Below are positions 103 through 29,738 of a stretch of DNA of 31,223 nt, one piece after another. Each line of letters opens with the position of its first letter. Position 1 is the stretch's first letter. Both the position numbers and the translations under genes were made by a program. This DNA comes from an uncultured Gemmatimonadaceae bacterium (GTDB taxonomy: Bacteria; Gemmatimonadota; Gemmatimonadetes; Gemmatimonadales; Gemmatimonadaceae): the NCBI GenBank assembly GCA_963829055.1, contig CAWHHI010000001.1:1-31223 (forward strand), in the 5' to 3' direction. The notes beneath the pieces are model-generated. The model ran no database searches. It had not been told where the DNA came from and was given only the letters and a program-made list of their open reading frames with translations.

Positions 103-999
103 ATGCCAACCACTGCCAACACGCAGGCGACGACCAACAGACCGATCGGCGCCGAGTCGGCGACGATGACGCGCGTGTGCGTGTTCGAGCCCATCGAGCT
201 GCTGCGCGCGCGGTACACGCGTCAACGGTTCGCTCCGCACACGCACGACGAGTACGTCTTCGGCGTCATCGAGAGCGGCGCCGCGCTCACGTTCTTCCGT
301 GGCCGCGAGGACGTCCATGCGGCGGGGTGCGTCATCACGTTCGCGCCTGGTGAGGTTCACACCGGCGCGCCAGCCACGGAGGAGGGCTGGGGCTACCGCA
401 TGCTCTACCCGAGCGAGGCGCTCGTCCGCTTCGTCGCGCGGGAGGCGACGGGTCGTGATTTCGCGCCGGTATTCGATACGTCCTCCGTGCAGGATCCGCG
501 GTTCGCGGAGCGCGTCCGCGCGATGCATGTGGTGCTCGAGAGCGACGCCGATCGACTCCGGAAAGAATGCGCCCTGCTGGAAACGCTCGGCGAGCTCGTC
601 CTCCATCACGCAGCGGCGGCGCGGTCCGGATGCCTAACGCCGACCGCCCCGCGCACCACCGCCGCCCTCTGCCGCGTCCGCGATCTGCTCGAGACGGAAT
701 ACTCGCGGACGGTCACGATCGGCGAGCTCGCCCGCGAGGCGGGACTCAGCACGTTCCACCTCATTCGGGTGTTCCGCGCCGCGTTCGGGCTCCCGCCCTA
801 CAAATACCTCGAGCAGGTCCGCATCCAACAGGCGCGTCGGCTGATCCGGCACGGCTTTCCGCTCACGCATGTGGTGCACGCGACCGGGTTCTCCGACCAG
901 AGTCACCTGACGCGCTACTTCAAGCGGATCGTTGGCGTGACACCGGGTCGGTATGCCCGCGCCGGCTGCGACCTCCGCGGCGCGGAACGCGTCGCCTGA
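103..999 (+). CDS. AraC family transcriptional regulator (cupin ligand-binding domain + double HTH)
   Basis: N-terminal FAPHTHDEYVFGVIE...PGEVH cupin motif. C-terminal LAREAGLSTFHLIRVF...GFSDQSHLTRYFKRIVGVTPGRY AraC signature. Start uncertain (46, 103 or 166). Confidence 0.95.
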   Translation: MPTTANTQATTNRPIGAESATMTRVCVFEPIELLRARYTRQRFAPHTHDEYVFGVIESGAALTFFRGREDVHAAGCVITFAPGEVHTGAPATEEGWGYRMLYPSEALVRFVAREATGRDFAPVFDTSSVQDPRFAERVRAMHVVLESDADRLRKECALLETLGELVLHHAAAARSGCLTPTAPRTTAALCRVRDLLETEYSRTVTIGELAREAGLSTFHLIRVFRAAFGLPPYKYLEQVRIQQARRLIRHGFPLTHVVHATGFSDQSHLTRYFKRIVGVTPGRYARAGCDLRGAERVA

Positions 1000-1032
1000 C
1001 AGGAACCGAGCAACGAGAGCAACGGCCGAACA

Positions 1033-1590
1033 ATGACAAAGAGTAGCGGCGTCAGTCGTCGCCTGACCTCGTGCGTCCTGGTCGTGACCACGTTAGGCGT
1101 GATGGCATGGACGTCCCGATCGCCGGCATCGACCATCGCGTCGACGACTACGTCAACGACCACGCAGGCTGCGACCACCGACGAATCGCGGGCGGTGCTC
1201 GCCGTCGTGCAGCGACTGTTCGACGCCATGCGCTCCAGGGACACCGCCGCGTTCCGCGACGTCTTCGAGCCTAGCGCGCGGCTCGTCGGCATGCGCACCA
1301 GGCCGAACGGCGAGCAGGTCGTTCAGGTGCTTCCGTGGGACCGCTTCGGCGCGTTCATGGCGTCGGACACCCGCGGGCCGTGGATCGAGCGCGCGTGGTC
1401 GCCGGAGGTGCGCATCCGCGGCACGCTCGCGACGGTGTGGGCCGAATACGACTTCCACTTCGGCCAGACGCCGAGCCACTGCGGCGTGGACGCGGTTCAG
1501 CTGCTCAAGACGCCGGGAGGCTGGAAGATCGTCTCGATCGCCGACACGTACGAGCCCACGGGCTGTCCGACCCGCGAGCCACCGCGTTAG
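1033..1590 (+). CDS. Secreted NTF2/SnoaL-like family protein
   Basis: Hydrophobic N-terminal signal and Thr/Ser linker, then VQRLFDAMRSRD...ATVWAEYDF...HCGVDAVQLLKTPGGWKIVSI, typical of the NTF2 fold. Confidence 0.85.
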   Translation: MTKSSGVSRRLTSCVLVVTTLGVMAWTSRSPASTIASTTTSTTTQAATTDESRAVLAVVQRLFDAMRSRDTAAFRDVFEPSARLVGMRTRPNGEQVVQVLPWDRFGAFMASDTRGPWIERAWSPEVRIRGTLATVWAEYDFHFGQTPSHCGVDAVQLLKTPGGWKIVSIADTYEPTGCPTREPPR

Positions 1591-1614
1591 GCTCCACGCC
1601 AGGCACCGCGGTCG

Positions 1615-2553
1615 TCAGGCCGTTGGACGCAGTAGCTGCGGCGCGCGAAGCCGGCTGACACGCAGCTTCGCTCCCGTCTTGAGGATCGCGATGTAGTCGC
1701 CGCCGAACCACGGCTGCACCTCGCGAATGCGCTCGATGTTGACGATCACCGACCGATGGATCCGGACGAACCGCTTCGGGTCGAGACCTTCGGTGAGCCC
1801 CGCGAGCGACGCGCGCAGTCGATGCTGCGCATCCCCGACGTGCAGCACCATGTAGTTGCCGTCCGCCTCGATCCAGTCCACGTCGACTGCCGGCACGAAT
1901 CGCACGCGTCCGTCGGAGCGCACGGCAAAGCGTCCAATGTAGGACGCCGCGCCGCCACGCGCCGGCTCTACACTGTCCGGGACGTCGTCGCCTGACGCGT
2001 CGAGATCAGCACTCGACTCCGATAGTGTCGGCCTCGGTGCGACGCCACCTGGAGGCGTTGGCAACCGAGTGAACGAGCCCGCCTGCCACGCCTGCACGAA
2101 CTCCGCGAGCCGACGTCCCAACTCCCCGTTTCGCCGCTCCTGCACCGCGGTCTGCGCGCGCTCGAGCGCCGCGAGCAGACGCTCGTCGGGGAACGGCTTG
2201 AGCACGTAGTCCAGCGCGTGCACCTCGAACGCGCGGATCGCGTGCGAGTCGAACGCGGTCACGAACACGACGACGGGCATCGAGGGCGTGTCGATCTGCT
2301 CGAGCACCGCGAACCCATCGAGTCCTGGCATCTGCACGTCGAGGAACACGATGTCGGGCGAGTGCTGGCGGATCGCGTCCACGGCCGACGCACCGTCCCC
2401 GCACTCGCCCACGATCTGCACATCCGCCGCGTGACGCAGCGCGAGCCGCATGCAGTCTCGAGCCAGGGGCTCGTCATCGACGATCAGTACGCGGACCGTT
2501 CCGACCGCGGGTGAGACAGGGGCGGTTACGACGTTAGGCACCGACGGCGACAT
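1615..2553 (-). CDS. LytR/AlgR family response regulator (REC + LytTR)
   Basis: VLIVDDEPLAR, VFLDVQMP, FVTAF and DYVLKP receiver motifs. C-terminal VDWIEADGNY...FVRIHRSVIVN LytTR domain. ATG at 2553 overlaps the kinase stop; the upstream part of ORF 1615..3630 is a shadow frame. Confidence 0.95.
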   Translation of the reverse strand: MSPSVPNVVTAPVSPAVGTVRVLIVDDEPLARDCMRLALRHAADVQIVGECGDGASAVDAIRQHSPDIVFLDVQMPGLDGFAVLEQIDTPSMPVVVFVTAFDSHAIRAFEVHALDYVLKPFPDERLLAALERAQTAVQERRNGELGRRLAEFVQAWQAGSFTRLPTPPGGVAPRPTLSESSADLDASGDDVPDSVEPARGGAASYIGRFAVRSDGRVRFVPAVDVDWIEADGNYMVLHVGDAQHRLRASLAGLTEGLDPKRFVRIHRSVIVNIERIREVQPWFGGDYIAILKTGAKLRVSRLRAPQLLRPTA

Positions 2554-3725: not shown

Positions 3726-3820
3726 TGTCATCCCGTAGCCAGTCTAGGCGCCAGTATCGCACGAAGGTCCCTCGCTGGACGCTCGGTGATGACAAGCTCG
3801 TAGCTGTCGCTCGGAATGAC
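3726..3820. repeat. Degenerate copy of GTCAT(T/C)CCGAGCG...CGCTCGG(A/G)ATGAC palindromic repeat
   Basis: gaaggtccctcgctggacgctcggtgatgac (3763-3793) is a near reverse complement of 7932-7960. cgctcggaatgac at 3808-3820. Confidence 0.7.
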
Positions 3821-3898: not shown

Positions 3899-6564
3899 CT
3901 ACTCCTCTCGAAGCGCGGAGATCGGGTCGACGCGCGCCGCCCGCCAGGCCGGCATCGCGCCGGCGGCAAGCCCGACGATAGCGAGCATCACCGCCGAACC
4001 GGCGACCGTCACTGGATCGGACGGCGACAGACCGTACAGGAACGACGTGACCCAGCGCGTGCTCATCAGCGCCGCCGCTGCGCCGAGCGCGACCCCGAGC
4101 ACGACCATGCGCGTCACCTCCCCGAGCACCAGCCGCATGACCCGTTGCTGCCCGGCACCTAACGCGATGCGGATGCCGATCTCGTTGCGACGTCGCGCCA
4201 CGCTGTACGACAGCGTCCCGTAGAGCCCGACCGTCGCGAGCAGGAGCGCCAGACCGCCGAAGAACCCCGAGAGCGACGCGAGCAGGCGCTCGCGCGAGAG
4301 CGACGCGTCCACCTGCGCGGACAAGTGGCGTGAACTCGAGCGCGATCGACCGGTTGACCTGCGCGACCATCGACTTGATGACCGGCGCGATATCGGCCGG
4401 CGGCCCGCTCGTTCGGACCTCGTACTGCGCGTACGAGCCGGGCCCTGCGTTCTGCGCTGCGGCGACGTAGATGGTCGGGATCGCCTCCTCGCGCAGCTCG
4501 CGATACTTCGCGTCCTTCACCACACCGATGATCTCGACCGGCTGGCTCACGCTATCGCCAATCGTCGTTCGGTAGGTCTTACCGAGTGGGCTCGCGCCGC
4601 CGAAGAACTTCTTGACCACCGCCTCGTTCACGATCGCCACACCGGGGGCTCCCAAGCGGTCGCGGTCGTTGAAGTCGCGGCCGGCCAGCAACGGCGTACC
4701 GAGCGTGGTGAAATAGCCGTCGCTGACTTCGTTGAAGTACGCCAGGGCGTCCCGCTCGCTCTTGGCCGAGAAGCCGTCCACCTTGATGAAGTCGTTCCAC
4801 GCGCTGCCGCTGATAGGCGTGATCTGAGAACCGGCGGCGCTCACAACGCCCGGCAGCGCACGGATCCGGGTCAGCAGGTCTCGGCGCACGGTGGTGTACA
4901 CGCTGTCCGAATAGCCGCCATGGCTCAGATCCACACTGACGATCAGCACGCCCTCGCGCCGGAAGCCAGGGTCGAGCACCGCAAGGTTGCGGAACGTGCC
5001 TAACAACAACCCGGCTCCGATCACCAGCACCAGCGACAGCGCGATCTGTCCTACAACCAGAACCTTTCCGACGGAAAATCGCGTGTGGCCTTCGGCGATG
5101 CCGCGTCCGCTCGGCCTTGAGCGCGAGCTGCGGATCGACGTGCGTGGACCGCCAGGCCGGCGCGAGCCCGAACAGGATACCGGTCGCCACCGCGACGATC
5201 AACGTGAACGCGAGCACGCGTCCGTCGAGCGTGAGGTCGAGCGATACCGGAGCCTGTCCGCGCGACAGCGACGCAACCAGCATCGAAGTACCCCATCGCG
5301 CGAACAGCGCTCCGGCCAGCGCGCCGAGTCCCGCGAGCAGGATGCTCTCGGTGAGCAACTGGCGCACGAGACGGCGTCGCGCCGCACCGATGGCGAGGCG
5401 AATGGCCATCTCGCGTCCACGCACGGCGGCCCGTGCGAGCAGCAGGTTCGCCACGTTCGCGCAGGCGATGAGCAGCACGAGCCCCACGACCACCATCAGC
5501 ACAGTCAACGCCTTCTGATATTGAATTCGTACGTACGATAGCCCGTTAGGCGCCGGCCTCACGCCGAGCGTGTTCTTGGCATATTCGGCTTTCTCGGCGA
5601 CGCCCCATCGCTCCGGGATCGTCGCGGCGAAGACCGCGGGCGCAAGTGCGCGGACGCGTGTCGCCAGCTGCGTCGGTGTAACGCCTGGCTTCGGGCGGCC
5701 AATGATGTACAGGTACCACGTGCTTCGTTGGTCGAGATCCGACCGCTGACAGAGCGGTACGTACACCTGCGGTGATTCGCCCACGCTCACGCCGAAGAAC
5801 GATTCCGGCGTGACCCCGACGATCTCGTACGGCTTGCGGTCGAGCGTGATCGTCTTGCCGACGGCCGACGGCGATCCGCCGAACTCACTCTGCCAGAACC
5901 CGTGGCCCAACACGGCCACGGCGGGACATCCACGAACATCGTCCGTGCGCGCGAGCAGACGCCCCGCCTCCGGCCGAACGCCGAGCGTGGAGAAGTAGTC
6001 GCCGCTCACCATCACGCCTCGCGCGCGTCGAACTTCGCCGCCGGCGGTGAGATTGAACCGCTCGTTGCCATACGCGAAGACGCCGGAGAACATGTCCTGG
6101 CGGTCGCGAATCTGCTCCCAGATCGGGTTCGTGAAGACCGCCCCGCCCTCGGATTCACCCATGGTGACGCGAACCAGCTCTTCGGGATGCGTCACCGGCA
6201 GCGATTTCAGCACGACGGCGTTGATCAGGCTGAAGATCGCCGTGTTGGCCCCGATGCCGAGGCCTAACGAGACGATGGTGACGAGCGCGAAGCCCGGGCT
6301 GGCGCGCAGCGCACGGACCGCGTACCGCACGTCGGCGCCGACGGACTCGAGCCACGTCATGACGTCGGCGTCGCGCGTGCGCTCCTTCTGCATACCCGGG
6401 TTGCCGAAGCGGCGGCGCGCTTCGCGCCGCGCGTCGTCCTCGCTCATCCCGCCCGCCACGAGCTCATCGGCCCGCTCGGCCATGTGGAACGCCATCTCGC
6501 GGTCGATGTCCGCTGACAGCCGGTTCGATCGGAGCAGGTTGACGAAGCGCCGGTACAATCCCAT
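3899..6564 (-). CDS. Duplicated ABC permease (MacB_PCD/FtsX x2, ADOP-like); frameshifts near 5110 and 4325
   Basis: DREMAFH...ARRRFGN prefix, [28 protein letters not shown]...[11 protein letters not shown], and a second half ending [15 protein letters not shown]...[17 protein letters not shown]. Spread over ORFs 4579..6564, 3744..5030 and 3899..4324. Confidence 0.93.
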
Positions 6565-8038: not shown

Positions 8039-10661
8039 CTAGTTCCGCAGCGTCTCCACCGGATCCACCGCCGCCGCACGACGCGACGGGACGTACGCGG
8101 CGCCAAGCGCGGACAACAGTACGATCGCTGCCCCGCCCATGAGCGCGATGCCGTCGAACGCGGGCAGGGTCGGGATGTGCGCCGCGCCGAACCGCGCCAT
8201 GCCCAGGGCGAGCAACGAGCCGATCACCACACCCGTCACGGCCAATCGCACCGACTGACGGACGACCAGGGCCACGACTATCCGTCGGGTCGCTCCGAGC
8301 GCGACGCGTATGCCGATCTCCTTCCGGCGAAGCGCCACGATGTAGGCGAGCACGCCATACACGCCCGAGATCGTGAGCACCAACGCGATCCCGCCAAGCA
8401 ACGACGCGATCCAGTGCGCGACTCGGAAGGGGTAGGCCTGCATGGCCATCGCCTCATCGAGTGTGTGAATCTCCACCGATCCACCCGGGTCTATGGTGCT
8501 GAGCGCGTGTCGGATGGAACGCTGTGCAGTGCCAGCGGCTGCGCGAGTCCGGACGAGCAGCGTCATTCCGCCCGTGTCGACGGCGGCGGGCTCATACACG
8601 GTGGGACGGTCCCGGCGCTCCCCGATAAACCCAAGGACGACGTTGCTCGCCACGCCAATGACGCGCGCCGCGCGCGGCGCCGAAGCCGAATCGCGGCCGC
8701 CCGAACCGAGGAGAATCGTGGCACCGAGCGCGTCACCGTTCGGCCAGAGCTCGAGCGCCGCGGCGTCGTTGATGACGACGACCGCTTCACCCGCGTGGCC
8801 CTCGTCGACGGAGAACGTACGGCCACGGACGATCGGGATGCCTAACGTCTGGAAATAGCCCGGCGAAACACGGATGCTTCCGGCAGCGCCCGCGTGAGCC
8901 GTCGCCGCCCCGGAAACCGCGATCGGCCGGAGCCTGCCGTCGAACGGTGCGTGCGATGTGGCGGCGATAGCGCTCACACCTGGCTCGTGCCCGAGACGCT
9001 CGACGATCGCATGATGAAGGGCCACCGGCGAATACACCTGCACGAGTCCATCAGCGCGGAATCCAATGTCGAGCGTGTCGAGTCGCTCCGCGTTCCGCAG
9101 CAGGATGCCGCTCAGCTCGAGCAGCATGGCGCACATGGTGACCTGGCCGATGACGAGGGCGTTCCGGATCCGCGTTGGCCGTAGAGCGACACCGAACTCC
9201 CCACGCGTCGCCTCGATGACGTTCGTGCGTGTCGTCTGCAACGCCGGGACCAGCCCGAACGCCACCGCGGACGCAATCGCGCCGGCGAACAGAAACGCGA
9301 AGAGCCTCGCGTCGGGTGCGAGTGAGACGACCCGGATGTAGGACGCGAATACCGGCGGCACCGTCGCGACGATGAGCTTCACACCGGCGCCGAGAGCCAG
9401 GCGCGACAGGAGAAAGCCGGCCACACCCGCCGGGACCGCGAGCAGAAGCGCCTCCGCGAGCAACTGCCTGACGAGTCTCGCGCGGCCGGCACCGAGCGCG
9501 AGGCGGATGCCTATTTCTCGCTGCCGCGCCATGCCGCGCGCAAGCATCATGTTCGCCACGTTCGCGCAGGCGATGAATAGCACGAGTGCAAACAGCGCGA
9601 ACACCGGCGCCAGCACGACCATCGTTTCCGGACGACATGTAGGTCGCCGTCGCGCGGGACTCCAGCGCGACCGTCGCGACGCGCTCCGGCTCCGGACGTT
9701 CCGCCGTGAGCGTCGCGACCCACGCGCTCAGGGCAGCAGCAGCGCCTGCCTCGGACATTCCCGGCAACAGTCGTCCGACGATTCTCACGATCGGTTGATC
9801 CGCGTCGGATGGACCGAGGCCATCGACCAACGCACCGACCATCGTGATTGGCGTCCAAAAGTCCAGTGGTAAATCAGTCAGCCCGTCGAACCCTTCGCGC
9901 GCAACGCCAATGATCTCGAACGATCGACCGCGGAGCAGCACGCGGCGCCCGACGATCGCGGAGTCGCCGCCAAATTTGGTACGCCAGGCGCGGTGGCTGA
10001 GCACGATCACGGCCGAGCCGCCGGCCGCATCGGCATCCGCCGGCACGATCGTCCTGCCTAACGCCGCCGGCACGCCAAGCATCGCGAAGTAGTTTCCGGT
10101 CACCGCCTGAAGCATCAACGGCTCGCCATCCCGGCGGACCATGAGCCATCGATACGCGAAGCTTTCCGCGAACGCGGGATTCGCGCGCGTCAGCGCGGCG
10201 TGCTCGTTCAACGTCGCGTTGCGCGCGCGACCGGTCTTGTCGCGAAGCGTGATCTCGTACAACGACCGCGGATCGCGCACGGCCAGCGGACGCAGCACGT
10301 ACGCATCGAAGATGGTGAACGCCGTCGTCACCAGACCGAGGCCAAGACCGATCGTCAGCACGACGGTGAGCGCGAACCGCGGCGCTCCGCGGAAGACACG
10401 CAGCGCATAACGCACATCCTGCGCAGCTTGCTCCAGCGCCTCTACACGCGACGCGCCGCGCGCCTGCTCGGTGAGCGCGGTGACATTCCCGAACGCGCGG
10501 CGCGCTGCCAGCCGCGCGTCCGCGGGGCGCTCACCACGCGCGATGCGTCGCTCGACATCGCGCTCGAGGTGATAGCGCATCTCCTCGTCCAGCTCGTCGT
10601 CGGTCGAGCGACGCCTGACGAGTGCGCGGACACGCACCGCGGCCGCACGGAGCACCCGCAC
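8039..10661 (-). CDS. Second duplicated ABC permease (ADOP-like); frameshift near 9625
   Basis: [76 protein letters not shown]. ORFs 9051..10661 plus 8039..9622. Confidence 0.92.
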
Positions 10662-15293: not shown

Positions 15294-15381
15294 GTCATTC
15301 CGAGCGGAGCGCGGAACGCGCGGAGTCGAGGAATCGTGCGGTTCCCGGTAGAGAGCCCTCTATCGGGACGCTCGCGATTCC
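15294..15381. repeat. Palindromic REP/MITE-like element (right arm truncated)
   Basis: gtcattccgagcg..gagtcgaggaatcg..cccggtagagagccctctatcggga..cgattcct, between convergent genes. Confidence 0.8.
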
Positions 15382-15386
15382 TAACG

Positions 15387-16987: not shown

Positions 16988-16993
16988 CGACGA

Positions 16994-17190: not shown

Positions 17191-19440
17191 GTGCTCGACC
17201 AGGACGCCCTCATGGTCGCACGAACGCTGCTCGCCGACCGGTACACCGTCGAGCGGGAGATCGGTCACGGCGGCATGGCCACCGTCTATCTCGCCGAAGA
17301 GACCAAGCACGGGCGACAGGTCGCGATCAAGGTCCTGCGCCCCGAGCTCGCGGCGACGTTAGGCGCCGACCGCTTCCTGCGCGAGATCGGGATCGCCGCT
17401 CGGCTGACCCATCCGCACCTCGTCCCATTGATCGACTCCGGCGAAGCCGGCGGACTGCTGTATTACGTCTCGTCCTACATGCCCGGCGGCTCGCTCCGCG
17501 AGCGGCTGGAACGCGAGGGCAAGCTCTCGGTCCGCGAGACGCTTCGCATTGCCGAAGACGTGAGCAAGGCGCTCGACCACGCGCATCGCGCCGGCTTCGT
17601 GCACCGCGACGTCAAGCCCGAGAACATCCTGTTCGCGGACGGCCATGCCATGCTCGCCGACTTCGGCGTCGCACGCGTGTGCTGTGGCGAGGGCGACGAT
17701 CCGGTAACGGCAGCAGGCATCGCCATTGGCACGCCCGAGTACATGAGCCCCGAACAGGCAAGCGGGGATCCCCACATCGATGGACGGAGCGACATCTACG
17801 CACTCGCCTGCGTCGTCTACGAGATGCTCGCCGGCAAGCCGCCGTTTCATGCGACGTCGCATCGCGCCGTGATGGCCCGGCACCTGACCGAGACGCCGGC
17901 GCGCCTTCGTGCGGTGCATCCGGAGATCCCGGCGAGCATCGATGACGCGATCGCGATCGCGATGAAGAAGGATCCCGCGCTCCGGTACGGTTCGGCGTGC
18001 GACTTCGTCGACGCGATGCGTGTGGACTCGCCGGCGCGGAGTCGCGCGTTCACTGGCGTCAGCCGCAACATCGCGGTGCTTCCGTTCGTGAACGCGAGTC
18101 CGGATCCCGACAACGAGTACCTGAGCGACGGTATCACCGATGAGCTCATCGACGCGCTGGCCAAGGTCGAGGGCATTCGCGTCGCCTCGCGAACGTCCGT
18201 GTTCGCGCTCAAGGGGAAGCCGCAGGACGTTCGTGCGATCGGTGCGCTGCTCGATTGCCCCGTCGTGCTCGAAGGCACCGTGCGTCGCTCGGGGCAGCAG
18301 CTGCGGATCACGGCGCAGCTCACCTCGACCGATGATGGTCATCTCATATGGTCGCAGCGCTACGACCGCCAGATGGCCGACGCATTCGCCATCCAGGACG
18401 AGATCGCGCGCACGATCGTGAGCACGCTGCGCGCGACGACGTTCGGCGACCTGACCACACCGCCGCTGCGCCGACACACGGAGAACGCTGCCGCGTACAG
18501 CCTCTATCTCAAGGGCCGATTCGAGTGGAACCAGCGCACGCAGGAGAGCATCGCCGCGGGCATCCGGTTCTTCGAGCAGGCGATCGCTGAGGATCCGGGG
18601 TACGCGCTCGCGTACACGGGGCTCGCGGACTGTTACGCGCTGCACGTGGACTACCGGAGTGTGCCGGTGGCCAAGGGCTTCGAGGCGGCGAAGGCCTACG
18701 CGCGGAAGGCAATCACGCTGGATGATTCGCTCGCCGAAGCGCACGCGTCGCTCGCGTGGGTGCTGTTCATCTACGACTGGAACTTCGACGAGGCCGAGCG
18801 TGAGTTTCGGCGCGCGATCGAGCTCGACCCGCGTTATGCATCGGCACACCAGTGGTACGCGTTCCTGCTCATCGCGAAGGGCGCGTTCGGTGACGCGCTC
18901 GTGGAGAGCCACACCGCGGTGGAGCTGGACGCCGGCTCCGCGTCGGCGCGTCGCTCGCTGGCGATGGCTTACTACTACGCGAAGCGGTGGGACCAAGCCG
19001 TCTACCACTTCGAGCGCGCGGTCGCCGTCAACCCGACCGCCGAAGAGACCTACCGCATCTGGGGCCTCATGCTCGCCGTCGCCGGAAAGTCGGACGAGGC
19101 GATCCGGATGCTGCGCGAGACGGCGGCGATGCCCGAGGCGGGAACGTATACGCGGGCATCGTTAGGCTACGCGCTCGCGCGTGCGGGGCAGCGCGAGGAG
19201 GCGCAGGCAATCTACGACGATCTGGCGGCGGCGGTCGCGGCCGGCAACTACGTCTCCCCCGTGGCATTCGCCACCATCCTCATCGGACTGGGCGACGTCG
19301 ACGGCGCACTGGACTGGGCGGAGCGCGCGTTGGAGGATCGTCGCGGGTGGCTCCTCTATCTGAACGTGAACCCGCTGCTCGAGCCGTTGCGCGGGCACCC
19401 GCGGCTCGACGCACTCGTCCGCCGCGTGCAACCGATATGA
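17191..19440 (+). CDS. Ser/Thr protein kinase with TolB-N-like and TPR domains
   Basis: IGHGGMATVYLA, VAIK, HRDVKPEN, DFG, GTPEYMSPE. Then IAVLPFVNAS..YLSDGITDELI and TPR repeats. Start 17191 or 17212. Confidence 0.95.
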   Translation: MLDQDALMVARTLLADRYTVEREIGHGGMATVYLAEETKHGRQVAIKVLRPELAATLGADRFLREIGIAARLTHPHLVPLIDSGEAGGLLYYVSSYMPGGSLRERLEREGKLSVRETLRIAEDVSKALDHAHRAGFVHRDVKPENILFADGHAMLADFGVARVCCGEGDDPVTAAGIAIGTPEYMSPEQASGDPHIDGRSDIYALACVVYEMLAGKPPFHATSHRAVMARHLTETPARLRAVHPEIPASIDDAIAIAMKKDPALRYGSACDFVDAMRVDSPARSRAFTGVSRNIAVLPFVNASPDPDNEYLSDGITDELIDALAKVEGIRVASRTSVFALKGKPQDVRAIGALLDCPVVLEGTVRRSGQQLRITAQLTSTDDGHLIWSQRYDRQMADAFAIQDEIARTIVSTLRATTFGDLTTPPLRRHTENAAAYSLYLKGRFEWNQRTQESIAAGIRFFEQAIAEDPGYALAYTGLADCYALHVDYRSVPVAKGFEAAKAYARKAITLDDSLAEAHASLAWVLFIYDWNFDEAEREFRRAIELDPRYASAHQWYAFLLIAKGAFGDALVESHTAVELDAGSASARRSLAMAYYYAKRWDQAVYHFERAVAVNPTAEETYRIWGLMLAVAGKSDEAIRMLRETAAMPEAGTYTRASLGYALARAGQREEAQAIYDDLAAAVAAGNYVSPVAFATILIGLGDVDGALDWAERALEDRRGWLLYLNVNPLLEPLRGHPRLDALVRRVQPI

Positions 19441-20387
19441 GCATGGAGAGCGAGGTGCGAATGAGCCGTTGGTCACGCCCAGTGCGCATTGGAGGCGGGA
19501 TCATTGGCGGGCTCGTCGTCGCCAGCGCGGCCGCGGCGACCATCGGAGCGTACGTGTGGCGCAGGACGACCGCGCGGCGCTACGCAGCGCTCGCCGACCA
19601 GCTGCGCCTTCGCCGCGACGCGCCCGGGCACCCATTCTCGCGCGCGGAAACGGACCGACTCCCTGCCCCGGTCGCGCGCTACTTCGCGTTCGCGCTCCCC
19701 GAGGGGCAACGACGCGTCCGAGTCGCGCGAGTGCGCTGGGTTGGCGAGATGCGTCTGAAGCCCGACGGCGCGTGGAGCCCCTTCACTGCCGAGCAACGGT
19801 TCACGGGTGCGCCACCGGGGTTCGTCTGGGACGCCGAGGTCAGGATGATGCCGCTCGTACCCGTGCGTGTGCGTGACAGCTACGTCGCCGGACAGGGACA
19901 GATGCTCGGACGGGTGGGCGGTGTGGTGTCGGTCGTGAACGAGGGAGGCACGCGCGAGATGGCGTTAGGCGCGCTCGTCCGCTGGCTGGGCGAGGCGGCC
20001 TGGTTCCCGACCGCCCTCTTGCCCGGCGAAGGCGTGACCTGGGAGGCGATCGACGACCACTCGGCCCGCGCCACGGTGACGGATGGCGCGACGAGCGTCA
20101 CCGCCGATTTTTACTTTGCGCCGACAGGCGAGATGACGCGCCTGACGGCGCTACGCTACCGCGACGTGAACGGCACCGGTGTGCTGACGCCGTTCGAGGG
20201 ACGCTACGAGCGCTTCATCCGCGAGCAGGGAGTCATGGTCCCGGGCGCGGCAGAGGTTGCGTGGCTCCTTCCCGAGGGACGCTTTGCCTACTGGCGCGGC
20301 CATCCCTCGGGTATCTCCTACGACCTCGTGCCCGAGCTCGCGTCAGGGCCTACGGCCGGTGAGCGACCGCCTAACGCAGAGCGGTGA
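19437..20387 (+). CDS. DUF6544-like membrane-anchored protein
   Basis: N-terminal TM; LPAPVARYF, W.PFTAEQ.F...PGFVWDA, VRDSY, RWLGEAAWFPTALLP..GVTW, F.YW. The ATG overlaps the kinase stop (ATGA). Confidence 0.75.
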   Translation: MSMESEVRMSRWSRPVRIGGGIIGGLVVASAAAATIGAYVWRRTTARRYAALADQLRLRRDAPGHPFSRAETDRLPAPVARYFAFALPEGQRRVRVARVRWVGEMRLKPDGAWSPFTAEQRFTGAPPGFVWDAEVRMMPLVPVRVRDSYVAGQGQMLGRVGGVVSVVNEGGTREMALGALVRWLGEAAWFPTALLPGEGVTWEAIDDHSARATVTDGATSVTADFYFAPTGEMTRLTALRYRDVNGTGVLTPFEGRYERFIREQGVMVPGAAEVAWLLPEGRFAYWRGHPSGISYDLVPELASGPTAGERPPNAER

Positions 20388-20693: not shown

Positions 20694-23600
20694 ATGCGTA
20701 ACGCCCTCCGCCTCGCGCTCGCCGCGACCGTCGCCGCCGCGCTCGTCATTCCCGAGACGAGCTCCGCGCAACGCGCCGAGTTGCCGCTCAAGCCCACGCG
20801 CACCGTCAAGTTCACGACCGACGAGGGCACGTGGATGTCGCTCGACGTCTCGCCCGATGGGCGGACGCTCGTCTTCGACCTCGCGGGCGACCTCTACACA
20901 CTGCCCGTCACCGGCGGCAAGGCCACGCGCATCACCGACGGTATGGCGTTCGACGCTCAGCCGCGCTGGTCAGTCGATGGGAAGAACATCGTGTACGTGA
21001 CCGACCGCGATGGCTCGGACGACGTCTGGGTCATCGACGCCGACGGGAAGAATCCGCGGCAGATCACGAAGACCGATCGCACACAGTTCCTCTCCCCCGA
21101 GTACACGCCGGACGGCAAGTACATCGTCGTCTCGCGGAACGCCGCGCTCTTCGGCACAGGGTACAACCTGTACATGTACCACAAGGACGGCGGCACCGGC
21201 GTGAAGATCACCGGCAACGCACCTGCCGGCGGCGCGCCCGCAGGTGGCCCGGGCGGTGGCGGCCCACAACGGAGCTACGTCGGCCCCGCGTTCGGCAAGG
21301 ATTCGCGTTATGTGTACGCCGCGTCGCGCAACGGGGGCGCCGCGGGCTACAACCAGACCAACTTCGACTGGACCATCGTCACCTACGACCGCGAGACCGG
21401 TGAGACGGCGCCCCGCGCGGCAGCACAGGGCGGCGCGTTCAAGCCCGTGCTGAGCCCGGACGGCAAGTGGCTCGTCTACGGCACACGCGCGGACACCGTC
21501 ACGTCGCTCCGCATCCGCGACATGGACTCGGGCGACGAGCACTGGCTCGTGCAGAACGTGCAGCGTGACGACATGGAGTCGCGGTTCACGCGCGACATCC
21601 TGCCTAACATGACGTTCTCGCCGGACTCGAAGTCGCTGTTCGCGGCGTGGAATGGCAAGATCCGTCGCGTCGACGTCGCCACCGGACGCCCGACAGAGAT
21701 CCCCTTCTCCGCCGACGTCGAACAGCAGCTCGGCGCACTCTCGAAGTTCGACTACCCGATCAACGACTCGACGCTCACCGTCGCGCAGATCCGCGGCGCG
21801 CGCCCATCGCCGGACGGCAAGCGGCTCGCGTTCACCGCGCTCGACAAGCTGTGGATCATGGATCTGCCGTCCGGTTCACCTAAACGCCTGACGCGTTCTC
21901 CGCACGAGACCGGCGAGCATTCACCCGTCTGGTCGCCTGACGGGCGCTATCTCACGTACCTCACGTGGACCGACCAGGGCGGCGACATCTACCGCATCGC
22001 TCCTGCCTCGCCTAACGCTACACCGGAACGCCTCACGCGGCAGACCGCGTTCTACACTGCCGTCAACTACACGCCGAACGGGCAGCGCCTGGTCGCCTAC
22101 AAATCGCCGCGGCAACCGCGTCTCGAGGAAGGCTTTCAGTACGGCAGCGAGCTCGTATGGCTGCCGGCGAATGGCGGGCCGACGACGTCCGTCGCGCCCG
22201 TGCCCGGCAATGCTGGCTTCCCACACTTCACGCGCAGCGACAACGACCGCGTCTATCTCACGCAGGGATCGACGGGCCTCGTATCCATGCGCTTCGACGG
22301 CACGGATCGCAAGACGCACATCAAGGTCACCGGCAATCCCGACTACCGTCAGACGACGCCGCAACCGCAGAACGCGTCGGAGATCCTGATCTCGCCTAAC
22401 GGCGATCGCGTGATGGCCGAGGTGGACGCGAACGTGTACGTGATGGATCTGCCGATCGTCGGCGGGCAGACGCCGACGGTCTCGGTCGTGAACGCGGCGC
22501 AGGCTGCCATTCCCGTCATGCGCCTGACGCGCATCGGCGGCGACTTCGTCGGCTGGCAGCCGGACGGCAATCACGTCTTCTTCTCGATCGGCCGGAGCTA
22601 CTTCAACTACGACCTCGTTCGCGCCGACTCCCTCGTGCGCGACTCGACCGTTCGCGCGGATTCGGTCAAGCGTGTCGCTGGCGCGGCCAACGCCGCACGT
22701 GACTCCGTGACCGCGGACAGCTCGCGGAATCACCCCGCCTACGAGCCGACACGGCTCGATGTCGCGATCACCGTCCCGGTCGACAAACCGCGAGGCCAGG
22801 TCGTCCTGCGCAACGCGCGCGTCATCACGATGAAGGGCGATGAGGTCATCGAGCGCGCCGACATTCTCGTGAAGGACAACCGCATCGCGGCCGTGGGCGC
22901 CGCCGGCACGGTGCAGGTGCCTAACGGGACACGCGAGATCGACGTTGCCGGTAAGACCATCCTCCCGGGCTTCGTCGACACGCACGCGCACATGTGGCCG
23001 GAGTGGGGGATCCATCGGTCGCAGGTGTGGATGTACATGGCGAACCTCGCCTACGGTGTCACCACCACGCGCGACCCGCAAACGTCCACGACCGACGTCC
23101 TGTCCTACGGCGACCTGGTCGAGACCGGCGACATTCTCGGACCGCGAATTTTCTCCACCGGGCCGGGCGTATTCTGGTACGACGACATCAAGAGCCTCGC
23201 CGACGCGCGCGACGTGCTGCGCCGCTACTCCGAGTTCTACCACACGAACACGATCAAGCAGTACATGGTCGGTGACCGGAAAGTGCGGCAGTGGGTCGTG
23301 ATGGCCGCGAGGGAGCTCGGCCTCTCACCGACGCTCGAGGGTGGCCTCGACATCAAGAAGAATCTCACGGAAGCGATGGACGGCTACGCGGGCAGCGAGC
23401 ATTCGTACCCGATCACGCCGCTGTTCAAGGACAACGTACAGGTGGTGGCCGAGAGCGGCATCACGTACACGCCGACGCTGATCGTGCTCTATGGTGGCCC
23501 GTGGGCGGAGAACTACTGGTACGAGCACTACGACATCACGAAGGACGAGAAGCTGAATCGCTTCACGCCGAAGAGCGAGATCCTCGACCGCGGGCTCCGC

Positions 23601-24062
23601 CGGCCCGGCTGGTGGCACGACAGCCAGTACGCACACCCGCTGTACGCGGCGCAGGCGAAGAAGATCATGGATGCGGGCGGGCGCGTAGGCGTCGGCAGCC
23701 ACGGCCAGCTGCAGGGCCTTGGCTACCACTGGGAGATGTGGAACATCGCGAGCGGCGGCGCCACGCCGATGCAGGTGCTGCGCGCGGCGACGATTCACGG
23801 CGCGGACGCGTTAGGTCACGCGAAGGACGTGGGGTCGATCGAGGTCGGCAAGCTCGCGGACCTGGTGGTGCTGGACGCGAACCCACTGGAGAACATCCGG
23901 AACACGAACTCGGTGCGGTTCGTGATGAAGAACGGCCGGATGTACGACGCGAACACGTTAGGCGAGACGTGGCCGCGGCAGAAGGCGATGGCGAAGCAGT
24001 GGTGGATGTACGACGATGTCCCGTCGGCACCGTCCGGCGGTTCGACGTCGCCTGAGCCGTAG
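20694..24062 (+). CDS. Secreted amidohydrolase family protein with N-terminal PD40/TolB-like beta-propellers
   Basis: Signal peptide; TDEGTWMSLDVSPDG and repeated SPDG blades; GKTILPGFVDTHAH metal site; YGVTTTRDP; GSIEVGKLADLVVLDANPL. Confidence 0.93.
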   Translation: MRNALRLALAATVAAALVIPETSSAQRAELPLKPTRTVKFTTDEGTWMSLDVSPDGRTLVFDLAGDLYTLPVTGGKATRITDGMAFDAQPRWSVDGKNIVYVTDRDGSDDVWVIDADGKNPRQITKTDRTQFLSPEYTPDGKYIVVSRNAALFGTGYNLYMYHKDGGTGVKITGNAPAGGAPAGGPGGGGPQRSYVGPAFGKDSRYVYAASRNGGAAGYNQTNFDWTIVTYDRETGETAPRAAAQGGAFKPVLSPDGKWLVYGTRADTVTSLRIRDMDSGDEHWLVQNVQRDDMESRFTRDILPNMTFSPDSKSLFAAWNGKIRRVDVATGRPTEIPFSADVEQQLGALSKFDYPINDSTLTVAQIRGARPSPDGKRLAFTALDKLWIMDLPSGSPKRLTRSPHETGEHSPVWSPDGRYLTYLTWTDQGGDIYRIAPASPNATPERLTRQTAFYTAVNYTPNGQRLVAYKSPRQPRLEEGFQYGSELVWLPANGGPTTSVAPVPGNAGFPHFTRSDNDRVYLTQGSTGLVSMRFDGTDRKTHIKVTGNPDYRQTTPQPQNASEILISPNGDRVMAEVDANVYVMDLPIVGGQTPTVSVVNAAQAAIPVMRLTRIGGDFVGWQPDGNHVFFSIGRSYFNYDLVRADSLVRDSTVRADSVKRVAGAANAARDSVTADSSRNHPAYEPTRLDVAITVPVDKPRGQVVLRNARVITMKGDEVIERADILVKDNRIAAVGAAGTVQVPNGTREIDVAGKTILPGFVDTHAHMWPEWGIHRSQVWMYMANLAYGVTTTRDPQTSTTDVLSYGDLVETGDILGPRIFSTGPGVFWYDDIKSLADARDVLRRYSEFYHTNTIKQYMVGDRKVRQWVVMAARELGLSPTLEGGLDIKKNLTEAMDGYAGSEHSYPITPLFKDNVQVVAESGITYTPTLIVLYGGPWAENYWYEHYDITKDEKLNRFTPKSEILDRGLRRPGWWHDSQYAHPLYAAQAKKIMDAGGRVGVGSHGQLQGLGYHWEMWNIASGGATPMQVLRAATIHGADALGHAKDVGSIEVGKLADLVVLDANPLENIRNTNSVRFVMKNGRMYDANTLGETWPRQKAMAKQWWMYDDVPSAPSGGSTSPEP

Positions 24063-25851: not shown

Positions 25852-25869
25852 CGTCGCTGCTGCACGACC

Positions 25870-27649: not shown

Positions 27650-29518
27650 CGTCGAGATGTCGTTCGACGCGCGCTCGCGTTCGGATTCATCTGTCGGCCG
27701 TCACCGCGTCCGCGTGCACGAGAGCGACGCGGCTCAGAGTGCGCAGGCACGCGACGTCGCGATGTTCCGCGGCGGCGCCACGCGCAGCGGCGTGTACGCC
27801 GCGCTCGCCCGGACAAGGCGCTCGCGGGCCTGCAGTGGCGCTTCCTGACCGAAGGCGACGTCGTCTCATCGCCCACGGTACTCGGCCAGACCGTGTACGT
27901 CGGAAGCGGCGACGGTCACCTGTACGCGCTCGATCGCACCACCGGTACGCAAGAAGTGGGCGTTCGACGCGGGCAATCCGATCCCCTCTTCGCCCGCGGT
28001 CGGCGGCGGCGCCGTGTACTTCGGCACCCGCGACGGCGAGTTCTTCGCCGTCGATGCCGCGACCGGGCAAGCAGCGCTGGACGTTCACGACCGGGCGCGC
28101 TCATGCCGTGGCCGTGGGGTCACGAGAGTGGTGACGTCTACACGTCGTCGCCGGCGTTCGCGAACGGGCACGGTGTTCTTCGGCGCCGGCGATGGTCGCG
28201 TGTACGCGGTCGATGCCGCGACCGGGAAGGAGAAGTGGCACGGCGCAGACCGAGGGTCGCGTGCGCGCGTCGCCGGCGGTCGACGCATCGCGCGTGTACG
28301 TCGGCTCGGCCGACGGTCGCGTGTACGCGTTCGATCGCGCGACCGGCGCGCTCGAGATGGAAGTTCGAGACGGAGGGCGTGAAGCTCGAATCCGGGCAAC
28401 TTCGGCTTCGACCGCCGCACCGTGCAGTCGTCACCCTCGGTGAGCAACGGGACGGTGTTCGTCGGCGCGCGCGACGGATGGATCTACGCGATCGATGCCG
28501 CGATCGGGGACGGAGCAGATGGCGCTTCGACCACAAGGTCTCGTGGATCAACACGTCGCCGGCCGTGGTCGATGGCGTCGTGTACGCAGGCAGCTCGGAC
28601 GCGCAGTTCGTTCAGGCGCTGGACGCCGCGACCGGCAAGGAGCTCTGGCGCACGACGACGGGCATGACGTGGTCGTCGCCCGCCGTCGCGGGCGACATGA
28701 TCTACGCCGGCGACGGCCAGGGCCGCGTGAACGCGATCGACCGGAAGTCCGGCAAGCTGCTGTGGAGCTTCCGCACCGGCGAGCACGGTGTACTCGTCGC
28801 CGACGCCGTCCGGGCGATCTGGTGTTCGTCGGCAGCACGGACGGCGGCGTGTACGCGCTGCGCGTGTCGCCGACGCCCGTGCATCGCGCCGTGTTCTTCG
28901 ACTCCGCGTACATCAAAGTCGGCGATCGGTTCCGGACCCGGTGCTGCTGTCGCGCTACTTCGCGAACCGCGGCTACCAGGTGCTGGACGAGAAGGCGTTA
29001 GGCGAGTTCCTGCCAGGCCCGCATCGCCGACAGGGAGCCGAGCGTGCTTGGTGTTCGCGGTCGATCACGTGCCGCCGCCGGCGGTGGACACGAGCGCCGT
29101 TCGAGCGGTCGCCGCTGCGCCGCTATCTCGATGCCGGTGGGAAGGTCGTGTGGCCGGGGATTCCGCCGGTGCTCTTTCCTCGCGATCCGAAGACGGGGAC
29201 ATCCCTGGCGGGCTCTCGTCGCTCAAGTGGGGCAACGCGACGAAGTTGTTAGGCGTGCCGCACGAGGCGGCGATGTTCGACCAGCGCGGCGTGCGCGCGA
29301 CGGACGCCGGCAGGCAGTGGGGCCTTCAGACGCGCTGGCGTACCGGCTGGGGGATCGACCCCGACAAGTCGATCACGGTGCTGGGCCTCGACGAATTCGG
29401 CCTCGCGTCGGCGTGGGTCAAACGCTACGGCGGACCGGAGGGCACGGGCTTCGTCCGCGTCCCGCCGGATGACATGATGACGATGTTCCTGGCCGCCGAG
29501 TACCGTCCTAGCAAATAG
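27650..29518 (+). CDS. PQQ-binding-like (BamB-type) beta-propeller protein (many frameshifts; start approximate)
   Basis: MFRGGATRSG leader and repeated SSP.V...VYVGS.DG..YA.D..TG...W blades across ORFs 27602..29518, 28014, 28192, 28422 and 28788. Confidence 0.88.
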   Translation, partial: RRDVVRRALAFGFICRPSPRPRARERRGSECAGTRRRDVPRRRHAQRRVRRARPDKALAGLQWRFLTEGDVVSSPTVLGQTVYVGSGDGHLYALDRTTGTQEVGVRRGQSDPLFARGRRRRRVLRHPRRRVLRRRCRDRASSAGRSRPGALMPWPWGHESGDVYTSSPAFANGHGVLRRRRWSRVRGRCRDREGEVARRRPRVACARRRRSTHRACTSARPTVACTRSIARPARSRWKFETEGVKLESGQLRLRPPHRAVVTLGEQRDGVRRRARRMDLRDRCRDRGRSRWRFDHKVSWINTSPAVVDGVVYAGSSDAQFVQALDAATGKELWRTTTGMTWSSPAVAGDMIYAGDGQGRVNAIDRKSGKLLWSFRTGEHGVLVADAVRAIWCSSAARTAACTRCACRRRPCIAPCSSTPRTSKSAIGSGPGAAVALLREPRLPGAGREGVRRVPARPASPTGSRACLVFAVDHVPPPAVDTSAVRAVAAAPLSRCRWEGRVAGDSAGALSSRSEDGDIPGGLSSLKWGNATKLLGVPHEAAMFDQRGVRATDAGRQWGLQTRWRTGWGIDPDKSITVLGLDEFGLASAWVKRYGGPEGTGFVRVPPDDMMTMFLAAEYRPSK

Positions 29519-29551
29519 GGCGTGGCCCAATCGACGCAATGGGTCATTGGG

Positions 29552-29664
29552 GTAATTGAGTCAGACTCGATTCTCATCATTCTGTTGCTACGTAATTGGG
29601 GTCAGACTCAGCTGACCCGTGTAGGTAAGGGGTCAGACTCGAGTCTGACCCCACACTGACCCCT
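29552..29664. repeat. Cluster of GGGGTCAGACTC units including a perfect 24-bp palindrome
   Basis: gtaattgagtcagactc (29552-29568), gtaattggggtcagactc (29592-29609), ggggtcagactcgagtctgacccc (29629-29652) and an extra ctgacccc. Confidence 0.85.
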
Positions 29665-29738
29665 GCCCGACCCCGATCATTGGACCGGCCTAACGAGATC
29701 GCACGTTGCGATCGCGGCCTCCGCCACGTCCCTGCAAC

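Follow-up and report, generated by a model that had tools for sequence, protein, structure and literature searches.

What maintains a short non-palindromic word that recurs throughout a bacterial chromosome, even against the codon habits of its host? The question arises from a 31,223-nt stretch of DNA (the window) in a Gemmatimonadaceae metagenome-assembled genome (MAG; G000, 20 contigs with chimeric blocks, 86% complete), in which a sequence-only reading noted a highly iterated motif and proposed a genome-wide signal comparable to HIP1 or DNA uptake sequences. To our knowledge, few groups carry such hyper-abundant words in their genomes, and there is still no agreement on what HIP1 does. No published description of the word was found in a search that did not extend to bioRxiv supplements, to REBASE or to the majority of subscription journals, where a methylome for these lineages may exist; the supplementary files of PMC4752239 mention no Gemmatimonadota and do not contain the word.

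Copies of the word in the window

All 29 copies counted by the sequence-only reading, 14 as CCTAAC and 15 as GTTAGG, were found at the positions it gave (Table 1), while an order-2 Markov model expects 2.0 CCTAAC. Every copy extends to CCTAACR (25 with G, 4 with A), and 28 are preceded by a purine, the exception being a T before 15380. Recomputing the zero-order estimate of ~5 CCTAACR gave 5.15, and the GC content, estimated by eye as ~69%, is 67.5%. Four spellings occur, i.e., GCCTAACG (n = 19), ACCTAACG (n = 5), GCCTAACA (n = 4), and TCCTAACG (n = 1). The word was said to be read mostly as TTA-GGN or CCT-AAC, which agrees with the 13 x-Leu(TTA)-Gly and 6 Pro(CCT)-Asn readings among the 25 sites within gene calls; the rest are three Leu(CTA)-Thr, one Val-Arg and two stops. 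Four copies lie outside gene calls, and the assembly is frameshift-rich. The word does supply the stop codons proposed at 1588 (TAG) and 2534 (TAA) and probably also the one at 16985, where the preceding gene shifts frame and ends in PPKKT-stop.

Table 1. Copies of the word in the window, with reading context and state in congeners
Spelling	Position	Strand	Context	Congeners
GCCTAACG	632..639	+	Leu(CTA)-Thr in AraC-family gene	
GCCTAACG	1091..1098	-	Thr-Leu(TTA)-Gly	
GCCTAACG	1585..1592	-	TAG stop (1588-1590) of 1033-1590 comes from word	
GCCTAACG	2532..2539	-	minus-strand TAA stop comes from word	
ACCTAACG (weaker variant)	4157..4164	+	minus-strand Ala-Leu(TTA)-Gly	
GCCTAACA (weaker variant)	4998..5005	+	Val-Arg(AGG)	
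GCCTAACG	5544..5551	-	Pro(CCT)-Asn	
GCCTAACG	6262..6269	+	Ser-Leu(TTA)-Gly	
GCCTAACG	8840..8847	+	Thr-Leu(TTA)-Gly	
GCCTAACG	10056..10063	+	within ORF 9051-10661, outside gene calls	
ACCTAACG	13576..13583	-	T>C at 13583 in contigs from four independent short-read runs gives full GCCTAACG	0/5 have copy
ACCTAACG	13957..13964	-	MATE gene	5/5 keep core
GCCTAACA	14515..14522	-		GCCGAGCA in 5/5 (Leu CTC, not TTA)
TCCTAACG	15379..15386	+	Thr-Leu(TTA)-Gly; sole copy without preceding purine	
GCCTAACG	15802..15809	-		1/3 aligned keep copy
ACCTAACG	16982..16989	+	probable source of TAA stop (16985), frameshifted gene	
GCCTAACG	17357..17364	-	kinase gene, Thr-Leu-Gly	5/5 keep copy
GCCTAACG	19160..19167	-		0/5 have copy
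GCCTAACG	19963..19970	-	Ala-Leu(TTA)-Gly	
GCCTAACG	20369..20376	+	Pro-Asn	
GCCTAACA	21602..21609	+		GCCGAACA in 3/3 aligned
GCCTAACG	22010..22017	+	Pro-Asn	1/3 keep copy
GCCTAACG	22394..22401	+	Pro-Asn	1/3 keep copy
GCCTAACG	22919..22926	+	Pro-Asn	3/3 keep copy
ACCTAACG	23809..23816	-		0/2 aligned have copy
GCCTAACG	23956..23963	-		1/2 keep copy
GCCTAACG	28996..29003	-		5/5 keep core
GCCTAACA	29247..29254	-		0/5 have copy
GCCTAACG	29688..29695	+	outside gene calls	

Genome-wide abundance and codon cost

Across G000, CCTAAC occurs 7,103 times and GCCTAACG 5,004 times, the latter ~260-fold above a masked null and 30-fold above synonymous shuffles. The motif had been described as a flat RCCTAACR; its over-representation stood, its flatness did not, and specificity is graded over the 8-mer GCCTAACG. 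Specifically, variants with one mismatch at an end stand at 9–65-fold, those with two end mismatches at 0.6–4-fold, and the spellings of NCCTAACN span 0.6- to 260-fold, which is not the behavior of a fixed 6-mer independent of its flanks. One-off neighbors are not depleted, except for GCCCAACG at 0.65–0.71. Coding copies numbered 4,412 versus 413–509 in five synonymous-codon shuffles (3,133 versus 90–106 for GCCTAACG), and TTA was used for 1,844 of the 9,449 Leu codons in the context G|Leu|GG versus 843 of 168,520 elsewhere. The word imposes TTA, CCT, and stop codons against the genome's own codon habits.

That the signal is genome-wide was borne out by 7.5–12.2 copies per 10 kb in 20/20 contigs (mean, ~0.9 per kb), together with even spacing and conservation (see below). 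The two strands carry equal numbers genome-wide, as the sequence-only reading had suggested in contrasting the word with Chi and KOPS, and we saw no skew across the GC-skew switch on contig C16 (left arm 161/219, right arm 259/247, consistent with gene orientation) nor over 660 kb of G283 (345/324). Both rRNA operons of G000 contain 0 copies, and foreign blocks within the assembly lack the word; the large word-empty blocks are probably mis-assembled foreign DNA rather than true acquisitions. Since 6/6 congeners carry the word, orthologous sites are shared and the foreign blocks lack it, we rejected a platform artifact. Assembly errors do not gather at the word (2 within 10 bp versus 3.2 expected, a weak test). 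Two housekeeping stretches on contig C19 fell under the genome mean, at 5.6 and 6.9 per 10 kb. Dense clusters singled out no gene, and no cassette-like polarity at gene ends was seen.

Conservation and distribution among lineages

Among 150 coding sites, 68 were common to congeners, at a four-fold identity of 0.51–0.52. Where G|Leu|GG was present in both genomes, the congener had TTA at 38/62 positions with TTA in G000 and at 9/155 without it. The word is retained in congeners despite near-saturated synonymous sites. Across the order its distribution is patchy, with close relatives entirely lacking the excess and densities running continuously from ~30 to 1,250 per Mb. In a second phylum, some Chthoniobacterales (Verrucomicrobiota) are packed with the word as GCCTAACGA, which requires one extra A. 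Thirty-nine of 40 viral contigs with a two-copy pattern, whose host range is unclear, had at most one further copy nearby and thus give little sign of phage mimicry; the viral scans yielded one chance-like triple, and 39/40 pairs were chance-like.

Mutual exclusion and a GC halo around copies

Copies avoid one another within ~300 bp in every orientation class. Among 7,082 gaps, 213 were shorter than 100 bp versus 622 expected, and the 8-mer pair correlation in successive 50-bp bins was 0.16, 0.26, 0.39, 0.52, 0.73, 0.81, and 0.92, while three control words gave a flat one. CG-Leu-GGC was spelled with TTA in 10/145 cases with another copy within 50 bp versus 293/509 with one at 400–600 bp. Inverted pairs closer than 50 bp reached 0.17–0.23 of expectation, and those 40–150 bp apart were likewise depleted (n = 63). 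GC at four-fold sites is raised symmetrically on either side of a copy, by +1.57, +1.00, +0.68, and +0.34 points at 12–30, 30–60, 60–100, and 100–150 bp (SE 0.2–0.3, taking sites as independent; 4/12 control words showed single-bin rises of 2–3 SE), and the effect fades by 150–300 bp. This halo is +2.4 ± 0.5 at 12–60 bp in other Gemmatimonadaceae and weak in Verrucomicrobiota (+0.2 ± 0.4 at 12–60 bp, +0.7 ± 0.3 at 60–150 bp). Synonymous divergence was flat with distance to the site, a comparison near saturation and of low power. Exclusion and halo have one common length scale. The influence of each copy seems to range over ~300 bases, as if word-bearing DNA wins short gene-conversion events.

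Identity with integron attC ends

PMC7370490 gives the attC R boxes as RYYYAAC and GTTRRRY, and GCCTAAC/GTTAGGC fits both. G000 carries its own integron, and in both phyla the commonest attC-end spelling of the lineage's cassette family is the word; attC families of relatives without the genome-wide excess begin with the same spelling. Specifically, GCCTAACG starts 14/43 sites in 12 Gemmatimonadaceae and GCCTAACGA starts 7/10 in G306 and 3/3 in G291, with the full word at 1/8 in G301. The ninth base, nearly free in the genome word, is C in 41/43 Gemmatimonadaceae attC starts, while the next base of Chthoniobacterales attC is the extra A that their genome word requires. The word begins or ends true arrays in G000 (contig C20), G025, G027, and G283, where two inverted R boxes close a hairpin between cassettes; four sites tested form hairpins of the attC type (z −2.2 to −6.1). 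In contrast, the dispersed copies, ~7,000 in number, are lone boxes inside genes, with no partner box, no attC hairpin and no arrangement between cassettes, and they are not predicted by the presence of IntI. One-strand clusters with ~550-bp spacing in word-poor relatives, considered as mobile-element signals, proved to be attC arrays. The attC-end identity, the second phylum and the ~300-bp range of action had been missed by the sequence-only reading.

Search for a reader of the word

None of the candidates examined (integrase, methyltransferase, ComEC/ComEA/ComM, ComP, SWIB, Ssn) tracks the enrichment across genomes. IntI was above cut-off in 24/41 genomes, both word-rich and word-poor, and several word-rich genomes yielded none (G002, G004, G010, G018, and G020, as well as G285 and G406). 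SWIB occurs in 17/17 of the word-poor genomes in the family, yet the search did not recover it from G036, G040, or G284, all word-rich; the Ssn-type GIY-YIG nuclease is in 9/28 word-rich and 6/36 word-poor genomes. Competence genes are present (ComEC in 10/10 genomes, ComEA in 5/5, adjoining pilB, and ComM in 62/64, plus pilins), and were rejected as readers since word-poor relatives have them too; an alignment of 6 of the 10 ComEC proteins showed nothing. ComP was above the PF16732 cut-off in 0/36 genomes, with four weaker matches, all word-rich, in a set where 28/36 genomes were word-rich. Among the 30 of 49 pilin loci seen, only GspG was common to both phyla. Reading by eye the 470 proteins that G000 shares with a word-rich Chthoniobacterales genome, compared over 1.12 of its 3.94 Mb, revealed no convincing reader; a horizontally shared one may lie in the remaining 72%.

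The only DNA methyltransferase candidate of G000 is an orphan Eco57I-like N6 enzyme, followed by a helicase-like gene and conserved in 49/52 order genomes searched. It was rejected as reader because it is equally present in word-poor genomes, where its C-terminal half is conserved too; it scored far under BREX PglX cut-offs and was not found in 4/5 word-rich Verrucomicrobiota (incomplete genomes). Families N6/N4, C5, Vsr, and NucS were detected in 3, 1, 1, and 0 of 5 word-rich genomes, with none in the 86% of G000 that is assembled. Of the binding, uptake or methylation/repair system that had been proposed, the methylation/repair part is thus weakened, while uptake or binding may hold, with no reader identified.

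DISCUSSION

The reading that we favor, at a probability of about 0.48, is that GCCTAACG serves as a donor tag, has been amplified by molecular drive and works like a DNA uptake sequence. A sequence-specific factor would favor word-bearing DNA as donor when homologous sequences undergo gene conversion, most plausibly because short fragments with the word are preferentially taken up or processed during natural transformation. Word-creating mutations would spread and word-breaking ones would be overwritten, even against codon preference. Conversion tracts would reach no more than a few hundred bases from each copy, so that another copy in the same tract would contribute less, hence the exclusion out to ~300 bp, and GC-biased conversion would leave a small symmetric halo of similar width. 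The preference of the factor would coincide with the attC end; it may have evolved for the harvesting of cassette DNA, and this coincidence may explain why unrelated soil lineages converge on one word. In favor we count the excess, graded ends, density, strand balance, exclusion, halo, conservation, lack of copies in rRNA genes and foreign blocks, competence genes, and attC spelling. Against it count the failure to find a receptor, competence genes in word-poor relatives, the shortness of the 300-bp scale (short fragments are usually degraded before recombining, according to PMC7811141), the depletion of close inverted pairs, the sub-mean housekeeping stretches, the weak Verrucomicrobiota halo, the single-bin rises at control words, and the poor species label that a tag common to two phyla makes. 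A bolder version, which we consider rather doubtful, is that in several soil lineages, belonging to two phyla, a factor for DNA acquisition is tuned to the conserved cassette end and lets them harvest cassette DNA across species, with short conversion tracts driving, as a by-product, the attC end into their own chromosomes.

The proposed likeness to uptake sequences or HIP1 gained support from density, strand balance, even spacing, and conservation. Like the DUS of Neisseriaceae and USS of Pasteurellaceae, of comparable density at about one per kb (PMC2817400), the word is non-palindromic, hundreds-fold in excess, equal on both strands, spaced more evenly than random, located within genes, conserved beyond the synonymous background, and missing from rRNA genes and perhaps from acquired foreign DNA in a host with competence genes. 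It differs in being shorter (8–9 nt), with no ComP found, shared by two phyla, patchy among close relatives and identical to the attC end; DUS/USS form terminator dyads, whereas here there are none. DUS are also enriched in the core genome (PMC2397512), unlike the word in the C19 stretches checked. HIP1 (GCGATCGC, cyanobacteria), a palindrome with 10–90 kb periodicity, is likewise an 8-mer of up to several hundred-fold excess, conserved in and between genes, tolerant at its first and last base, and described as of unknown function (PMC5861425, PMC4390886). In contrast to HIP1, the word is not palindromic, is polyphyletic, and is tracked by no methyltransferase found in these incomplete genomes. 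Chi and KOPS are also short, non-palindromic, over-represented chromosomal words, but the word shows neither replication-linked strand skew nor orientation-dependent spacing; flank dependence and the PglX scores set it apart from restriction-modification or BREX targets.

An unlikely alternative to a drive is that a chromosome-binding protein organizes or shields ~150 bp on each side of the word in a structural role of the HIP1 type, with purifying selection keeping the sites. Where footprints overlap, each further site would gain less, and the halo would come from protection against deamination or oxidation. The binding-like gradation, orientation-independent exclusion, symmetric halo and conservation fit, and a nucleoid role has been argued for HIP1 (PMC5861425). 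However, the continuous densities and the lack of excess in close relatives are hard to reconcile with an essential structural site, SWIB, the one shared nucleoid-type candidate tested, does not track the word, and the attC identity is left unexplained.

That identity is what recommends the distinctly improbable idea that integron machinery writes or favors the word, IntI or the cassette-making process acting on chromosomal R-box look-alikes and triggering short conversions with word-bearing DNA as the source. The modal attC start, even in word-poor genomes, the matching extra A and the integron of G000 all point this way. However, IntI recognizes attC chiefly by structure, which dispersed copies lack, as they lack cassette-like polarity; the erratic occurrence of IntI, the mismatch at the ninth base and the single full word among the G301 starts also argue against it. 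Also improbable, and slightly more so, is a mismatch-repair ratchet directed by methylation or another mark, whereby a copy newly arisen by replication error labels the strand it lies on as the template, except where an older copy lies close by. In PMC4390886, such a proposal for HIP1 expects new sites to be lost close to existing ones, matching the exclusion, and the orphan methyltransferase with its helicase-like neighbor offers a candidate; its distribution, the sparsity of the other repair and methylation families, the graded flanks, undepleted neighbors save GCCCAACG and unclustered assembly errors (weak test) speak against this. A Chi-, KOPS- or defense-type self mark shielding chromosomal DNA from a nuclease would suit the word-free foreign blocks and strong conservation, but is very improbable given the lack of replichore skew (C16; 660 kb of G283), the orientation-independent exclusion, and the viral counts.

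The hosts, soil bacteria from two phyla, are abundant and for the most part uncultured, and in their MAGs the word tells native from mis-assembled foreign DNA. Its ~forty-fold variation among relatives provides many independent contrasts for finding the reader and for testing drive against selection, and the common scale of exclusion and halo makes recombination tract length and GC-biased conversion readable from single genomes. A causal link to attC would make the word relevant to the acquisition and making of integron cassettes. Were cassette harvesting true, it would constitute a third, independent uptake-sequence system, common to two phyla, the first to connect uptake specificity with integrons, and an entry into how chromosomal genes become flanked by R boxes during cassette genesis.

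Abundance and spelling of the word

The sequence-only reading counted 29 copies of CCTAAC/GTTAGG in the window, and a check of the sequence recovered all of them at the same positions with the same flanks. Its proposal of a genome-wide signal without strand bias also held: we found 7,103 copies of CCTAAC in the assembly (G000; 7.78 Mb, 20 contigs, 86% complete), with 7.5 to 12.2 copies per 10 kb on all contigs and near-equal strands on every contig. C follows 96% of all CCTAA in this genome. Compared with a Markov null from which the core had been masked in training, the 8-mer GCCTAACG occurred 5,004 times against 19 expected, i.e., a 260-fold excess, followed by ACCTAACG (65-fold), GCCTAACA (54-fold), CCCTAACG (43-fold), GCCTAACC and GCCTAACT (13- to 14-fold), TCCTAACG (9-fold) and the weak form GCATAACG (4- to 11-fold), where the null form of the word is GCCGAACG. 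Two end mismatches left 0.6- to 4-fold and other core changes 0.65- to 3-fold of the expectation. Such a graded excess looks more like binding affinity than a fixed enzyme site.

Rare codons do carry the word within genes, as had been suggested from the window. A total of 4,412 coding copies were observed versus 413 to 509 after synonymous shuffling, TTA made up 1,263 of the 2,855 codons in the context CG-Leu-GGC, and proline was spelled CCT in 1,292/2,869 cases before AAC versus 6/1,991 before AAG. Copy density is raised at stop codons and directly behind them, and is reduced over the first 200 bases of coding sequence.

Host and assembly of the window

The window is contig C1 of G000, whose proteins had a median identity of 60% to loci with Gemmatimonadaceae or Gemmatimonadota in their titles (27 of 93 matches at 70% or more) versus 38% for Verrucomicrobiota loci, and the host is therefore taken, on protein similarity, as a member of the Gemmatimonadaceae. 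The gene content of the window is ordinary (an AraC regulator, ABC permeases, MATE, a kinase and an amidohydrolase). Single-base insertions are numerous in this assembly, of which gene calls span 72%. Short-read contigs of four studies matched the window, with 98–99% identity in most pieces listed, and runs X1, X2, X4 and X6 contain contigs of this identity; because they lack the insertions that split several genes, we regard these splits as assembly errors. Word-free blocks occur inside the same assembly, which shows that the word is not a product of the platform. The largest (C6, 7–55 kb; C11, 7–44 kb) carry second copies of housekeeping genes with 45–59% identity to the native ones and are probably chimeric. 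Among the word-free blocks, the two that were checked held duplicates of chorismate synthase, FtsK and FolD-like genes. Separately, CAAATTTG was counted four times on two strands in the window versus 0.02 expected; it is its own reverse complement, hence these are two places, and it is not enriched genome-wide.

Features located during the analysis (C, contigs of G000 unless another genome is named; L, fetched loci)
Feature	Location	Remarks
Genes split by single-base insertions	window 3744-6564, 8039-10661, 16173-16987	Insertions missing from short-read contigs
Word-free blocks	C6:6855-55038; C6:about 597000-623330; C11:7378-44055	Resemble foreign DNA mis-assembled into the MAG
Chromosomal integron, scattered attC sites	C20:103000-209000; C9:92266-93484; C10:178807-190167	Integrase divergent (about 265 bits, at the TIGR02249 cut-off)
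Orphan Eco57I-like N6 methyltransferase	C8:73551-about 78400 (L029)	About 1,000-1,130 aa; orthologues L049-L078
comM split by 3-12 kb	G264:C175; G012:C92; G323:C1	All word-poor; probably from inserted elements
Secreted protein, repeated helix-hairpin-helix motifs	L139:1084-1722 (G014, richest genome)	Second ComEA-like match; not found in G000 or G239
CRISPR-like array	L360:2400-3883	About 55 repeats, period 60-61 bp; word in repeat loop, taken as chance
Viral contig, 5 kb	L269	Five 8-mer copies; only one of 40 with >3

Distribution across genomes

With genomes called word-rich from 34 copies per Mb, 16 of 41 near relatives qualified, and a phylum sample yielded 14 rich genomes among 261, all 14 within the order and 0/86 outside it. 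Density spans about 34 to 1,250 per Mb, and the clades of a quick methyltransferase tree, in which many forks stay open, mix rich and poor genomes. A search of 185,579 species genomes with a three-copy pattern returned 45 matches: Gemmatimonadota supplied 21 and Chthoniobacterales or Verrucomicrobiae 23, and the last was a betaproteobacterium in which no other copies occurred. Verrucomicrobiota loci spell the word GCCTAACGA, with A as the next base in 90%, and 13 of 121 genomes of their order (Chthoniobacterales) are word-rich. Both dialects, i.e., phylum-specific spellings, were present in metagenome contigs. Four unpublished genomes (G013, G084, G123 and G202) supply low-count rows in the relative, IntI and phylum counts, and no claim depends on them.

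Conservation, spacing and a GC halo

Orthologue comparison showed conservation: 68 of 150 G000 coding sites were common to congeners (five congeners, with one gene able to count once per congener), despite a four-fold-site identity of 0.51–0.52 and the retention of rare A/T third bases in only 10–20%. Within the window, the core was kept in 22 of 54 aligned site-genome pairs, and the unshared copies were the GCCTAACA copies.

The pair correlation of the 8-mer was 0.16 below 50 bp and rose to about 0.9 at 300 bp, while three control words gave flat profiles. Close pairs were depleted in same, convergent and divergent orientations alike, and only 1.2–1.9% of weak variants, including GCATAACG, lay within 50 bp of strong sites versus 6.2% at random. 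GC at four-fold sites within genes was raised symmetrically about the word (+1.57, +1.00, +0.68 and +0.34 points in successive bins up to 150 bp) and lowered by 0.35 to 0.49 points at 300–700 bp; none of 12 control words had a comparable run, with single-bin rises of 2–3 SE in four. This halo recurred in two other Gemmatimonadaceae sets (+2.39 ± 0.67 and +2.47 ± 0.65 at 12–60 bp) and was weak in Verrucomicrobiota. On rough estimates, an equilibrium excess of 260 would correspond to a force of about 5.6 log units, an adjacent copy would take away about a third of it, and the 0.16-logit halo would call for a GC bias near 3% for every unit of that force.

Candidate readers

No reader, i.e., a sequence-specific factor presumed to recognise the word, was found among the candidate families tested against word-rich and word-poor genomes. 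None of IntI, the order-wide Eco57I-like methyltransferase, other methyltransferase families, Vsr, NucS, ComEC, ComEA, ComM, ComP, pilins, SWIB or an Ssn-type nuclease (a test prompted by PMC11893778) tracked the word. A weak hint came from comM: once adjacent splits in three rich genomes are treated as frameshifts, 5 of 36 word-poor genomes had the gene split far apart or yielded no match, as against 0/28 word-rich ones (p 0.06). The comparison of G000 with one word-rich Chthoniobacterales genome, of which 28% was covered, brought up no convincing reader. The continuous, polyphyletic pattern would also fit a bias in shared machinery, which would show only with frequent transformation and large populations.

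Among the genomes searched, the Eco57I-like enzyme occurred as a single copy in 49 of 52 from the order and in 0/3 from elsewhere; its C-terminal half is conserved. In G000 it lies among housekeeping genes, followed by a gene for an SNF2/DEAD-type helicase, and the enzyme resembles a domesticated methyltransferase. For two marine Gemmatimonadetes MAGs, PMC8919816 gives no methylated motif, a negative repeated in preprint 10.64898/2026.06.24.734251.

Possible origins of the word

Donor-biased short conversion would give abundance, conservation, mutual exclusion and the halo on one scale. To gain from conversion, the word would have to mark the donor, because it would wear itself away if it marked the recipient that is cut. 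Two other explanations remain in contention, a bound-protein footprint (PMC5861425) and a repair ratchet (PMC4390886).

An integron-driven process remains as well. Where relatives are word-poor, a large share of their few copies sits in arrays of GCCTAACA ... CGTTAGGC hairpins, these being the R boxes of attC sites in integrons (PMC7370490), and G000 itself carries an integrase and attC sites on C20. Its attC family starts with GCCTAACG in 7 of 9 sites and ACCTAACG in 1 of 9; the same family in 12 word-poor family members starts with RCCTAAC in 20 of 43, GCCTAACG being commonest (14; Fisher p 0.03). In G283 the attC family starts with RCCTAACGA. The attC spelling thus exists without a genome-wide excess. 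Using an attC pattern with matches in 6 of 39 genomes, we found GCCTAACGA starts at 7/10 sites in word-poor G306, 3/3 in word-poor G291 and 1/8 in borderline G301, so the attC of the second phylum continues with the same A that its genome word adds. The ninth base argues against the genome word being a simple attC copy: Gemmatimonadaceae attC have C there, and their genome word leaves it almost free; the dispersed copies themselves are not attC sites. How cassettes are created is described as unknown in PMC4889954. A Chi- or KOPS-type function is unlikely; the sequence-only reading had already set the word apart from both by its lack of strand bias.

Its comparison with DNA-uptake sequences stands in part. 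The word would work like one, through a donor-biased drive, and donor-biased conversion agrees with the drive model for uptake sequences (PMC2817400, PMC2397512 and PMC7811141); it differs in that terminator dyads and ComP were not found. Our literature searches found no description of the word. It is real and strong, and belongs to the class of hyper-abundant words.
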